Assembly: GCA_963755915.1 (NCBI GenBank) | Contig: CAVWLP010000002.1 | Span: 1,376,001-1,440,000 of the forward strand | Direction of reading: 5' to 3' | Source of the DNA: an uncultured Phycisphaerales bacterium | GTDB lineage: Bacteria; Planctomycetota; Phycisphaerae; Tepidisphaerales; Tepidisphaeraceae | Length of the DNA stretch: 64,000 bases | In this document: positions 8,680 to 11,992 of the stretch, one piece after another | Layout of the letters: each line of letters opens with the position of its first letter | Position numbering within the stretch: the stretch's first letter is position 1 | The notes under the pieces: model-generated | The model's input: only the letters and a program-made list of their open reading frames with translations | Databases searched by the model: none | What the model was told of the DNA's origin: nothing | Translations under genes and position numbers: made by a program

Positions 8680-9819
8680 ATGCCTCCGCTCCAAATCCTC
8701 AACGACGATCAGGCCCGCCTCAAATCCCTCAAGGACATGCTCCATCAACACGTCGCCCCCGCCGCCGACGAGCTGATCCAGCACGAAGCCGACGGCGCCG
8801 TCCGCTGCTTTGCCTGCGGCCATCGCTGCCTCGTCAAGCCCGGCCGCGACGGCGTCTGCCGCGTGCGCTTCAACGAGGGCGGCACTCTGAAAGTCCCCTT
8901 CGGCTACGTAGGCGTCCTCGCCTGCGACCCCATCGAGAAAAAACCCTTCTTCCATTGCCTCCCCGGCAGCGACGCCCTCACCTTCGGCATGCTCGGCTGC
9001 GATTTCCACTGCGGCTATTGCCAGAACTGGGTCACCAGCCAGATGCTCCGCGACCCCAAGGCCGCTGCCCCGCCCAAATTGACGAACCCCAAGCAGCTCG
9101 TAGACCTGGCCATCCAGCACGGAGCCCCGGTCATCGCCTCCAGCTACAACGAGCCGCTCATCACCAGCGAATGGGCCGTCGCCGTTTTCCGCGAAGCGCG
9201 CACCCGCGGCCTCAAGTGTGCCTATATCTCCAACGGCAACGGCACGCCGCAGGTCCTCGATTTCCTCCGTCCTCACGTCGACGCCTACAAAGTCGATCTC
9301 AAAACCTTCAATCCAAAACACTACCGCGAGCTGGGCGGCGTAATGGAAAACGTCACCACCACCATCAAAATGCTCAAGCAACGCAACTTCTGGGTCGAAA
9401 TCGTCACCCTCGTAGTCCCCGGCTTCAGCGACGACCCCGATGAGCTCAAACAAATGGCCGATTTTCTGGCCTCGGTTGATCCCCTCATGCCCTGGCACGT
9501 AACCGCCTTCCATCCCGACTACAAAATGCGCGAGGGCTTCCGCAACACCACCGCCGACGACCTGATGCGAATCGTCGAGTACGGCCAGAAAGCCGGCCTG
9601 AAATATATCTACCCAGGCAACCTCCCCGGCCAGGTCGGCGATTGGGAAAACACCCGCTGCCACTACTGCCGCGCCATGCTAATCCGGCGATACGGTTTTC
9701 TGGTCCAGGAAATCCGCGTGACCTCAGAGGGCAAATGCCCCGACTGCGGCACCGCCATCCCCGGCATCTGGGGCAAGCGCAGCGGCCACGGGGATGGAAA
9801 GGTGCGCCCCTTGGCCTAA
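8680..9819 (+). CDS. amrS: AmmeMemoRadiSam system radical SAM enzyme
   Basis: CFACGHRC, DPIEKKPFFH, GCDFHCGYCQNW, WHVTAFHPDY, NTRCHYC. Confidence 0.9.
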   Translation: MPPLQILNDDQARLKSLKDMLHQHVAPAADELIQHEADGAVRCFACGHRCLVKPGRDGVCRVRFNEGGTLKVPFGYVGVLACDPIEKKPFFHCLPGSDALTFGMLGCDFHCGYCQNWVTSQMLRDPKAAAPPKLTNPKQLVDLAIQHGAPVIASSYNEPLITSEWAVAVFREARTRGLKCAYISNGNGTPQVLDFLRPHVDAYKVDLKTFNPKHYRELGGVMENVTTTIKMLKQRNFWVEIVTLVVPGFSDDPDELKQMADFLASVDPLMPWHVTAFHPDYKMREGFRNTTADDLMRIVEYGQKAGLKYIYPGNLPGQVGDWENTRCHYCRAMLIRRYGFLVQEIRVTSEGKCPDCGTAIPGIWGKRSGHGDGKVRPLA

Positions 9820-10136
9820 TCGGGTGTAATGCTTGCTTATGGCTCACCGGTATTTCCCCTCCCCTGGTACTCCTGACCGCCCGCCACTTTTTTCTGTCGA
9901 GTCAGATTTCCCCCCGCCGGAATGATGCGCTCGGCTTCTTTCCTTTGTCGCAGGACGTGAACCAGCAAAACCGCCAATACCGTCCGGCTGGCCCCACGAT
10001 CTTCACCTGCCCGATGGTCCAAGCACAAATAGGCCTGAAAATCCGCAGCAATGCGTCTGTTCGTTGCCTTTGGCCTTGGACGGTTAGATGGCATGTTGGT
10101 TGTCGGGCTAGCCACCGTCGACTAAACCCGACAACC

Positions 10137-11276
10137 ATGAAACACAATTCTTCTAAAGGTAGCCGCAAGGCCTCCCAAGTTCGAGGGGAGAGAGTCTCGA
10201 AGCCCAATCAGTCGCACGAGGTGATCAAACTCGGCGTGGATACCCACAGCCAGCAATATACCTTCGCACGGATGGTCGATCATCAGGGGATTCAACCGGC
10301 CCAAAAACTCTCGCCGGCCGTCTTCATCGAGTTTCTCAAAAAGCAGCTGACGCTGGCCAAACGCGTGGTGATGGTCTACGAAGCCGGTCCCTACGGCTTC
10401 GCGTTGCACCGCGAAGCCACCGCCCTGGGCGTAGAGTGCCTGGTCTGTGCCCCCGAACGTCTGTCCCGCGGCCGCAAGAGAGTCAACGACAAGATCGACG
10501 CCACCGAACTGCTCTCGCGTCTGGACCGGCATCTCGCCGGCAACACGACGGCGCTGCGTCTGGTGCGTGTCCCCACGGTGGCCCAGGAGATCCACCGCCG
10601 CCTGGGGCGCGAGCGCAACACCTACCGAAAGGAACGGCAGCGCTGGATCGCCCGTGGACGAAGCCTGCTGCACAGCCTCGGCATCCATCGCCCGGGAAAA
10701 TGGTGGGAGCCGCTGGCGTGTGAGCCGCTGCTGAAAAAGCTGGAAGAACTCTACGGCTCAGAACTGATCGAACCGATCCGCAAGGAGCTTGCCCGCGACC
10801 TGGAGATGGTAGAGATGATGGACCAGAAGCGAGATGAACTGACCCGCCAGCTCTGCGCGGAGGCCAAGTCCCGCGAATCGGCCCGGATCAAGGGAATCGG
10901 ACACCTCAGCTATGAGCTGCTGGATCGTGAGATCGTCGACTGGAATCGCTTCCAGAACCGCCGGCAGATCGCCAGCTACACCGGGCTTTGCCCTGGAGAA
11001 TCCTCCTCAGGCCAGAGCCGGATGAATCTGTCGATCGACAAACATGGCAACCGCCGACTGCGCACGGTGCTGGTGGAACTGGCGTGGCTGCTGCCCAAGT
11101 TCCAGCCGGAGTATTTTCGTCTGAAGCGCTGGAAGCAGGTCTTCGAGAACCCCGGAGCCAGAGCCATGCGCAAGAAAGCCGCGGTGGCCTTGGCGCGGCA
11201 ACTGGCGGTGGACCTGTGGCGGATCAAAACCGGCCGGGTCAAAGCGCAGGATCTGGGCTTGAAACTGGCAGCGTAA
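10137..11276 (+). CDS. IS110-family DEDD recombinase/transposase
   Basis: LGVD, VYEAGPYGF, NDKIDA (D-E-D-D); YTGLCPGESSSG serine loop; GNRRLR; VALARQL. Confidence 0.95.
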   Translation: MKHNSSKGSRKASQVRGERVSKPNQSHEVIKLGVDTHSQQYTFARMVDHQGIQPAQKLSPAVFIEFLKKQLTLAKRVVMVYEAGPYGFALHREATALGVECLVCAPERLSRGRKRVNDKIDATELLSRLDRHLAGNTTALRLVRVPTVAQEIHRRLGRERNTYRKERQRWIARGRSLLHSLGIHRPGKWWEPLACEPLLKKLEELYGSELIEPIRKELARDLEMVEMMDQKRDELTRQLCAEAKSRESARIKGIGHLSYELLDREIVDWNRFQNRRQIASYTGLCPGESSSGQSRMNLSIDKHGNRRLRTVLVELAWLLPKFQPEYFRLKRWKQVFENPGARAMRKKAAVALARQLAVDLWRIKTGRVKAQDLGLKLAA

Positions 11277-11339
11277 AAAGCCGGCCAAGGTTGTCCCCGA
11301 ACTTCTGGAGCCTGGATGGACGACGGATAAAGAGCTTGG

Positions 11340-11600
11340 AATAAAAGTGAAAGAGACGAGCCACGGTGTAACGCGCCCGTTTTCCCCTATGAGCGCCCTT
11401 GAGCGTTCGGCGGTTAGATTGGGTCAGCGTGAACCGCCTGCAACGGACGTATTAGACCATGGTGTACTGGCAAACCGCCAGGTACGGATAGCAGGAAGAG
11501 CGTTGCCGCAATGATGGCAACAGCCCATGCAGAGCGGACACTGACAGGCCGAGCAACAGCTTAAAAAGACAAAAGAATAAAGGCGGCGAATGCGGCCCAC
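11340..11600 (+). ncRNA. predicted bridge/seek RNA of the IS110 element (boundaries approximate)
   Basis: Two internal-loop hairpins whose loop strands match the target flanks (11380-11388, 11411-11418) and the IS ends (11457-11461, 11488-11493). Confidence 0.75.
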
Positions 11601-11992
11601 ACTTGACAACCAACATAGCAGGGGAAAAGGAGAGGGAGTGGGGGTGCGGGGGCGGAGCCGCGGACGGCTCCGGGCCGTACTCGGCGATTACGCCCCGGAG
11701 GCCTCCGCGCCTCCGAAGAACCTCTTGGGGCCCTATGTGGCTCTCCCTCGCCCCCGCATTGCATTTGCGTTTTGTATTCAAAAAAAGCAGCCATATGGCT
11801 CACGAAAACAAAAAGTGTCGGGCGGTCAGCCTGGTACTCCGGGGGAACCCTCCCTGTCCTCTTCCGCTAGTTTCGGCACGATGGGTGGGGGGTCGGACCA
11901 CAAATGAGCGCCACAACCGCTCAACCAGTTCGCCAACATTTTTCGTGCAGCGCCCCGTTCGTGTGTTAAATTTATTGATCACGGAGAAACCA

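Follow-up and report, generated by a model that had tools for sequence, protein, structure and literature searches.

What does the long non-coding region downstream of an IS110-family recombinase gene encode, which sequences would its product read, and across which bases are the DNA strands exchanged? We examined these questions for an IS1111-type insertion sequence located at positions 10086/10088-11619 of the window, by which we mean the whole 64-kb stretch of DNA that was analysed. The original prediction for this locus described an intact IS1111-type element in whose 3′ non-coding sequence two internal loops carry readable guides, a description that our analysis bears out, together with a crossover core of a single nucleotide, which had to be corrected. 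The element is very probably a typical member of the IS1111 family, hence of a known type, with a guide of the seekRNA/bridge-RNA kind. Its features are listed in Table 1.

Table 1. Coordinates of the insertion sequence, its target and its predicted guide RNA (positions in the window).
Feature	Positions	Strand	Details
Left target half (LT) CGGTT	10081..10085	+	Within repeated extragenic element; 6/6 copies; joined to AG-GGGAA in 12 empty sites
Core dinucleotide AG, left copy	10086..10087	+	One AG per empty site, one per junction when occupied
Insertion-sequence body	10088..11619	+	1532 bp (1534 bp with one core copy); from comparison of occupied and empty sites
Left terminal extension ATGGC, right-donor half (RD)	10088..10092	+	7 bp counting AG; ATGG complements loop-2 CCAT
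Left subterminal inverted repeat ATGTTGGTTGTC	10093..10104	+	Perfect 12-bp match to 11605-11616
Left-end stem-loop reaching A of start codon	10097..10137	+	−20.5 kcal/mol, z −2.44; inverted repeat also in L001 and L002
Transposase/recombinase gene	10137..11276	+	379 aa plus stop; NF033542, PF02371
3′ non-coding region encoding predicted guide RNA	11277..11619	+	343 nt; long non-coding region downstream, as in IS1111 family
Target-binding loop (loop 1)	11371..11430	+	Outer helix 11371-79/11420-30, inner helix 11390-96/11403-09
Loop-1 5′ arm guide TTTTCCC-CT-A	11380..11389	+	Complements target top strand T-AG-GGGAAAA, 10/10; covaries with right flank
Loop-1 3′ arm guide CGGTT-AG-AT	11411..11419	+	Equals LT + core + first two element bases, 9/9; covaries with left flank
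Donor-binding-type loop (loop 2, candidate)	11438..11508	+	Outer helix 11438-45/11501-08, inner helix 11464-71/11477-85
Loop-2 5′ arm CCAT	11457..11460	+	Complements ATGG at left end (10088-91); 4 nt only, next base varies
Loop-2 3′ arm ATAGC-AG-G	11488..11495	+	Equals right end + core + first RT base; 7-8 nt match
TTGACA, possible −35 box of junction-only promoter	11603..11608	+	17 nt from CATGTT (10092-97) after joining
Right subterminal inverted repeat GACAACCAACAT	11605..11616	+	12 bp, perfect; conserved in relatives
Right terminal extension AGC, end of left-donor half	11617..11619	+	3 bp; IS1111 convention
Core dinucleotide AG, right copy	11620..11621	+	Right of ATAGC in 26/27 right junctions
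Right target half (RT) GGGAAAA	11622..11628	+	GGGAAAA in 2/6 copies, GGGAAG(G/T) in 4/6

An IS110-family recombinase between IS1111-type ends

The element encodes a DEDD/serine recombinase that belongs to the IS110 family. Its score against the NCBIfam model NF033542 ('IS110 family RNA-guided transposase') is 163.8 bits, above the cut-off of 140, and it also matches Pfam PF02371 (E 8e-16); the Pfam model of the N-terminal IS110 domain was unreported for this protein even at E <= 10. An AlphaFold model built on 23 homologues reached a mean pLDDT of 81.4, and its best fold match in the PDB is the IS621 recombinase (8wt9_A, E 8.1e-8, TM 0.50/0.58), at about 16-19% identity in the fold alignment, with ISCro4 also matched. 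At the level of sequence, a phmmer search against PDB sequences returned nothing at E <= 0.01, and a profile of three homologues gave a weak C-terminal match to the IS621 transposase (E 0.0014) in which S291 is aligned with the serine of the IS621 ESGSS motif. All 23 homologues share residues D35, E82, D118, D121 and S291, of which we take the first four to be the DEDD motif, by reference to the motif itself rather than by superposition.

According to Siddiquee et al. 2024 (PMC11187229), the hallmarks of IS1111 members are subterminal inverted repeats of about 11-13 bp and a longer non-coding region downstream of the transposase gene, and the convention is to count a 7-bp left and a 3-bp right extension, with one AG counted with the element. 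In the window, the non-coding sequence measures 343 nt downstream of the gene (11277-11619) versus 49 nt upstream of it (10088-10136), and, with one AG likewise assigned to the element, the left extension is AG+ATGGC (7 bp) and the right one AGC (3 bp). The left subterminal repeat is unchanged in the left ends of 36 of 39 relatives, whose ends are nearly the same as those of the window element. We assign the element to the IS1111 family because four features agree with the description in PMC11187229: subterminal repeats of 12 bp, extensions of 7 and 3 bp, a non-coding region placed 3′ of the gene, and a guide order in which the top-strand complement comes first.

Empty sites reveal a two-nucleotide crossover core

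A blastn search of the genome with the whole element (E <= 1e-5) returned six full copies, identical at 100% over 1531 nt, and no stand-alone copies of the RNA. All six share the same flanks, the same site and the same orientation within one repeated extragenic element, and the occupied sites read ...GGACGGTTAG/ATGGC...ATAGC/AGGGGAA... (slashes at the boundaries). The same genome holds 13 empty target sites, all in the same repeat, of which 12 are exactly CGGTTAGGGGAA, that is CGGTT-AG-GGGAA, and one is a GAGAA variant. Comparison of occupied with empty sites indicates that insertion added 1534 bp, and that it was specific for both site and orientation and proceeded without target duplication in 6/6 copies, a single AG being present in the empty site and one at each end of the occupied site. 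Since AG is common to both junctions and single in empty sites, the target is CGGTT-AG-GGGAA and the core is AG. With six identical copies and 13 target sites still free in this genome, the element is probably active.

The relatives tell the same story at their own junctions. Across 43 sources (the window and 42 relatives), AG stands to the left of ATGGC in 39/39 readable left junctions and to the right of ATAGC in 26/27 right junctions, the exception being AA. In one relative, L002, an empty site of the target used by that element lies about 100 nt away from it, again with a single AG. The crossover core is thus a 2-nt AG, equal in length to the CT of IS621, and the expected circle junction is ...CAACATAGC-AG-ATGGCATG... 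(also written ...CAACATAGC-AG-ATGGCATGTTGG...), i.e. ATAGC-AG-ATGG.

The original prediction proposed the same RNA-guided element with a 1-nt core, A, which it took for the only base common to both junctions, a target CGGTTAG-A-GGGGAAAA and a circle junction ...ATAGC-A-TGGCATG.... A10088 and A11620 can be read as such a shared base with boundaries at 10088/10089 and 11619/11620, and CCATG (11457-61) would then complement 5 nt of the junction. We give this version hardly any credence. The empty site that it calls for, CGGTTAG-A-GGGGAA, occurs 0 times in the genome against 12 occurrences of CGGTTAGGGGAA in the cognate repeat; the single genome matches of the shorter GGTTAGAGGGG and of ATAGCATGGC sit in unrelated contexts; AG flanks both ends in the 39/39 and 26/27 junctions counted above; and the G of CCATG is not conserved. 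An AG core also fits the guides better, with a loop-1 5′ arm complementary to T-AG-GGGAAAA at 10/10 positions and a loop-2 3′ arm of 7 nt (ATAGC-AG) rather than 6. What the two junctions have in common is AG, at 10086-87 and 11620-21, and the A-only core arose because both boundaries had been set one base too far right. The same empty sites, including the one beside L002, do away with the ATAGC-A-TGG junction by placing a single AG in the target. They also rule out a 3-nt core TAG with a target ...TAG-C-AGGGG..., another candidate that we considered; CGGTTAGCAGGGGAA is absent from the genome. A 1-nt core would have departed from the known bridge recombinases, and the corrected 2-nt core fits the published IS1111 pattern.

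The repeat that serves as target is about 130-150 nt long (window 10040-10087 and 11620-11790), occurs at least 19 times in the genome, 13 times empty and 6 times occupied, and carries a long GC-rich hairpin (GGGGTGCGGGGGAGGCGGGAGA...TCTCCCGCCTCCCC). A search of Rfam across 9800-11900, which covers both the guide region and the occupied target repeat, gave nothing at E <= 1. The left flank of the window copy (9890-10087) and that of the copy at C2:1813845-1814050 (reverse) are identical over 122 nt and about 97% identical over 200 nt, and their right flanks differ; this may reflect a repeat unit of greater length, a small duplication, or inverted copies that recombined. In run X14, an RNA-library contig whose loose end falls at window 11620 has ...CCGGTTG immediately in front of AGGGGAA, and is an uninterrupted target of the L007 type (CGGTTG-AG-GGGAAAA) in another organism or strain.

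Natural relatives share a conserved RNA scaffold

We collected relatives from 2 genome contigs of Phycisphaerae-type metagenome-assembled genomes (64-65% protein identity) and from 40 metagenome loci (48-81% identity in the best segment); a search of 400 other genomes sampled from the phylum gave no close protein relatives at E <= 1e-40. Of 31 elements found for the RNA alignment, 28 were kept; L025 and L036, which are near-duplicates, and the deletion derivative L043 were set aside. The resulting alignment shows a highly conserved scaffold interrupted by two short variable blocks. It supports four helices with 32 pairs, in which 91.7% of the cells are paired, compared with 21-40.5% when the partners are slid, and 12 helix pairs show two-sided changes versus 5.2 +/- 1.3 in shuffles, none of 500 shuffles reaching 12. 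The two helices of loop 1 are paired at 98.4% and 95.4% (two-sided changes in 2 and 3 pairs, respectively) and those of loop 2 at 83.9% and 88.8% (3 and 4 pairs). These four helices coincide with the four stems proposed initially, and the guides lie in the internal loops of this conserved stem-loop scaffold, as they do in a seekRNA or bridge RNA.

The folding energy is no better than that of shuffles, either for the whole non-coding region (z −0.86) or for its 146-nt core (z −0.35), and Rfam offers no match, so that the case for an RNA structure rests on covariation. For the outer helix of loop 2, RNAalifold and the single-sequence fold both favor an alternative pairing of CCUGC with GCAGG, which is invariant in the relatives and would bury part of the loop-2 3′ arm.

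Some relatives depart from the full-length form. L041, L043 and L044 are shortened derivatives of 1149, 631 and 505 bp that keep both ends and may be non-autonomous copies; the deletion in L043 spans from within the gene to the loop-2 5′ arm, with loss of loop 1. In L001 (1447-1500), an extra A past the usual start shifts the frame, and the open frame starts at an ATG from the first bases of the element, which may reflect an assembly error or a real variant.

Loop 1 carries guides for both halves of the target

The segments at 11380-89 and 11411-19 relate to the flanks in the way that defines a seekRNA or bridge RNA. As noted originally, TTTTCCCCT at 11380-88 is the reverse complement of AGGGGAAAA at 11620-28, and CGGTTAGA is present at both 11411-18 and 10081-88. 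Chance would give 0.27 occurrences of CGGTTAGAT in the 64-kb window and 0.03 of TAGGGGAAAA. The former is present twice, in the flank and in the guide, a count reached in 3 of 100 shuffles, and the latter once, as the minus-strand guide. Only the five RT bases nearest the core are matched in every copy, given that the right flank reads GGGAAAA in two of the six copies and GGGAAG(G/T) in the other four.

The relatives provided the guide/flank covariation check that had been proposed for this prediction, and loop-1 guides do covary with flanks. For the 5′ arm and the right flank, the longest exact match averages 8.1 nt in 19 non-redundant cognate pairs and 4.0 nt in 322 non-cognate pairs. For the 3′ arm and the left flank, 3.5 of 5 positions agree in 27 cognate pairs and 1.4 of 5 in 672 non-cognate pairs. 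In both cases, the observed sum was reached by 0 of 10,000 permutations, a figure that is inflated by relatedness among the elements, still with at least 10 unrelated target sequences involved. Guide lengths across the relatives are 3-5 nt on the left and 6-9 nt on the right, and single elements such as L032 and L017 show a poor guide-flank fit. Each of the 14 distinct 5′ arms has a complementary base opposite the core G, allowing for a slip in the G-run at the site of L024, and 4 of them have a non-complementary one opposite the core A. This looser pairing at the core A resembles the less constrained first core position of IS621.

One could instead suppose that the 3′ region acts at the DNA level or in regulation, for instance as a terminator, an antisense regulator or a site of protein binding, and that its matches to the flanks come from shared ancestry of the element and its site. 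The unremarkable folding energy and the lack of an Rfam family are compatible with such a reading, as is the fact that the RNA is here a predicted one. It leaves unexplained four helices preserved by compensatory base changes, and arms that change with unrelated targets as scaffold and ends stay constant across proteins of 50-81% identity; moreover, the family is RNA-guided by experiment (PMC11187229, PMC11208160 and PMC11208158). We regard a purely regulatory 3′ region as highly improbable, and favor a guide RNA whose loop 1 would read the target.

Loop 2 matches the predicted joined ends of the element

The strings CCATG (11457-61) and ATAGCA (11488-93), to which the original prediction assigned a donor-reading role, are present where it placed them. 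The second holds and extends to ATAGC-AG-G. The first is sound up to CCAT: its fifth base fits only the incorrect junction and varies between T, G, C and A in the relatives. All 28 relatives have the CCA, and at least 90% of them the T. In the window element, GG stands at the place of the expected CT, leaving the 5′ arm devoid of a core complement. The remark that the donor guides are short is accurate for this arm, which matches 4 nt only. A longer donor 5′ guide was sought in the rest of the non-coding region; GATGGCA at about 11514-20 equals the left end and is missing from L001, and we took it as a chance match.

Loop-2 arms and element ends are invariant across the set of relatives and hence offer no covariation signal to read. 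The single exception in the 3′ arm is L019, which has an A after AG in both arm and flank, and which is the only relative whose right flank starts in A. By count alone, ATAGCAGG is not significant, with two occurrences in the 64-kb window against 0.77 expected and 18 of 100 shuffles reaching two.

These properties leave room for a strict seekRNA arrangement, in which loop 1 alone would guide, the protein would recognize the ends by their 12-bp subterminal repeats, and conservation of the scaffold would account for the matches in loop 2. Siddiquee et al. (PMC11187229) report target matches only, with seekRNAs of 70-100 nt, and argue that recognition of IS1111 ends may differ owing to the subterminal repeats. 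A loop-2 5′ arm that matches 4 nt with no core complement, a count of ATAGCAGG no higher than chance, the invariance that deprives loop 2 of covariation support, and the unchanged CCAT of L008, whose left end has become ATCGC, all agree with that arrangement. Against it, loop 2 shares the architecture of loop 1, an internal loop between two covarying helices, and its 3′ arm equals the right end plus core exactly where loop 1 has LT plus core; L019 carries its additional A in loop-2 arm and right flank alike; and donor-binding nucleotides are predicted in IS1111 RNAs by Durrant et al. (PMC11208160). On balance, guidance by loop 1 alone seems to us unlikely, if by no means far-fetched, and we favor an RNA in which loop 2 would read the donor.

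In this IS1111 clade, the bottom-strand arms of both loops may read across the core into the partner DNA (LT-AG-AT and LD-AG-G). The RNA could thereby be complementary to the two integrated junctions and not only to the free target and donor, with handshake-type positions on the arm opposite to that of IS621. Taken with the 4-nt donor 5′ arm, this could imply a different order or control of strand exchange, with the subterminal repeats, bound by the protein, sharing in donor recognition, a conjecture that we rate as rather improbable.

A predicted excision and reinsertion cycle

We propose that about 145 nt of the 3′ non-coding region (approximately 11365-11510) would be made as a guide RNA of the seekRNA/bridge-RNA kind and would bind the recombinase. 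Loop 1 would read the target CGGTT-AG-GGGAA, its 5′ arm TTTTCCC-CT-A pairing with the top strand T-AG-GGGAAAA and its 3′ arm CGGTT-AG(-AT) with the bottom strand of the left half and core; the 2-nt core AG is common to both matches and would be the place of strand exchange. Loop 2 would match the element's own joined ends, ...ATAGC-AG-ATGG..., through 7-8 nt of its 3′ arm ATAGC-AG(-G) and the 4 nt of its 5′ arm CCAT. The element would excise as a circle with its ends joined through one AG, and the circle would reinsert in one orientation, without duplication, into the repeated extragenic element.

Circle formation would also bring TTGACA of the right end to 17 nt from CATGTT of the left end. 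TTGACA is found in 26/27 right ends of the 43 sources, and a promoter scan found no sigma-70-like promoter in the linear element. Junction promoters are described for the family (PMC11208158), and the joined TTGACA/CATGTT pair, as a possible predicted promoter, agrees with them. In the linear element, the stem-loop at the left end may occlude the start or damp read-through expression.

Public sequencing runs were also consulted. Of the 23 listed with the element, all are kept as contigs, and the contigs of the four examined contain neither a circle junction nor a skip across the element. Contigs of a metatranscriptome run lie on 11254-11477 and on parts of the gene; being contigs, they are no proof of transcription. 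No conclusion can be drawn from the uncovered parts, nor from an RNA-library contig that starts exactly at 10086.

Other IS110-family elements in the same genome

The genome has 19 IS110-family genes in total, of three kinds. Besides the element of the window, a second IS1111-type element is present in nine copies on contigs C2 and C3 (loci L047-L055, e.g. C3:759329-761000), with a 359-aa open frame. It lies inside a palindromic repeat whose empty site reads TAACCGCCAAGAGCGCC; 8 nt (CGCCAAGA) are common to both junctions, which makes its boundary ambiguous over 8 nt, and its 3′ region holds TTGGCGTCTT, complementary to the right junction. The third kind, with a 423-aa open frame, has four copies (C2:348765-349802, C2:1052463, C2:2992898 and C3:899864), whose flanks are likewise conserved between copies.

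Comparison with characterized systems and implications

The closest parallels are the IS1111 seekRNA elements ISEc11, ISPa11, ISKpn4 and ISPst6, which, according to the descriptions given by Siddiquee et al. 2024 (PMC11187229), likewise have 12-bp subterminal repeats with 7/3-bp extensions, a long non-coding region 3′ of the gene, and a top-strand complement located 5′ of a bottom-strand match and overlapping it in the target. They too insert in an oriented manner into repeated sequence without duplication, and relatives with other targets have swapped guides on the same scaffold. The window element differs from those described in that paper by its host lineage, a soil bacterium with relatives in Phycisphaerae metagenome assemblies, by its target and by the sequence of its guide scaffold.

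As in the bridge RNAs of IS621 and ISCro4 (Durrant et al. 2024, PMC11208160; Hiraizumi et al. 2024, PMC11208158), there are two internal loops, here with a candidate top-strand and a candidate bottom-strand guide each. The description of IS621 in PMC11208158 further includes a conserved 2-nt core at both junctions (CT there, AG here) whose first position is less constrained than the second, comparable to the 4/14 arms that are non-complementary opposite A. The protein fold is the same, and a junction promoter would be expected in both. In contrast to IS621, the predicted RNA lies at the 3′ rather than the 5′ end and its arm order is reversed; the element has long subterminal repeats and a donor 5′ arm of 4 nt without core complement; and the bases past the core are on the bottom-strand arms (AG-AT and AG-G), whereas the handshake guides of IS621 adjoin the top-strand arms.

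ISPpu9 of Pseudomonas putida, with its small RNA Ssr9, is likewise a multicopy IS110-family element in repetitive extragenic sequences (PMC12288879), and its small-RNA gene lies downstream of the transposase gene, as does the predicted RNA of the window element. ISPpu9 has extra ssr9 copies, unlike the genome studied here, in which the blastn search gave no RNA copies outside the full element.

The locus serves as a worked case in which empty sites fix the boundaries of an element of this type. Beyond this, about 28 natural relatives with the same ends and the same RNA scaffold carry at least 10 different guide pairs, and this set tabulates the guide registers, guide lengths and core pairing that are tolerated, for the engineering of IS1111-type recombinases.
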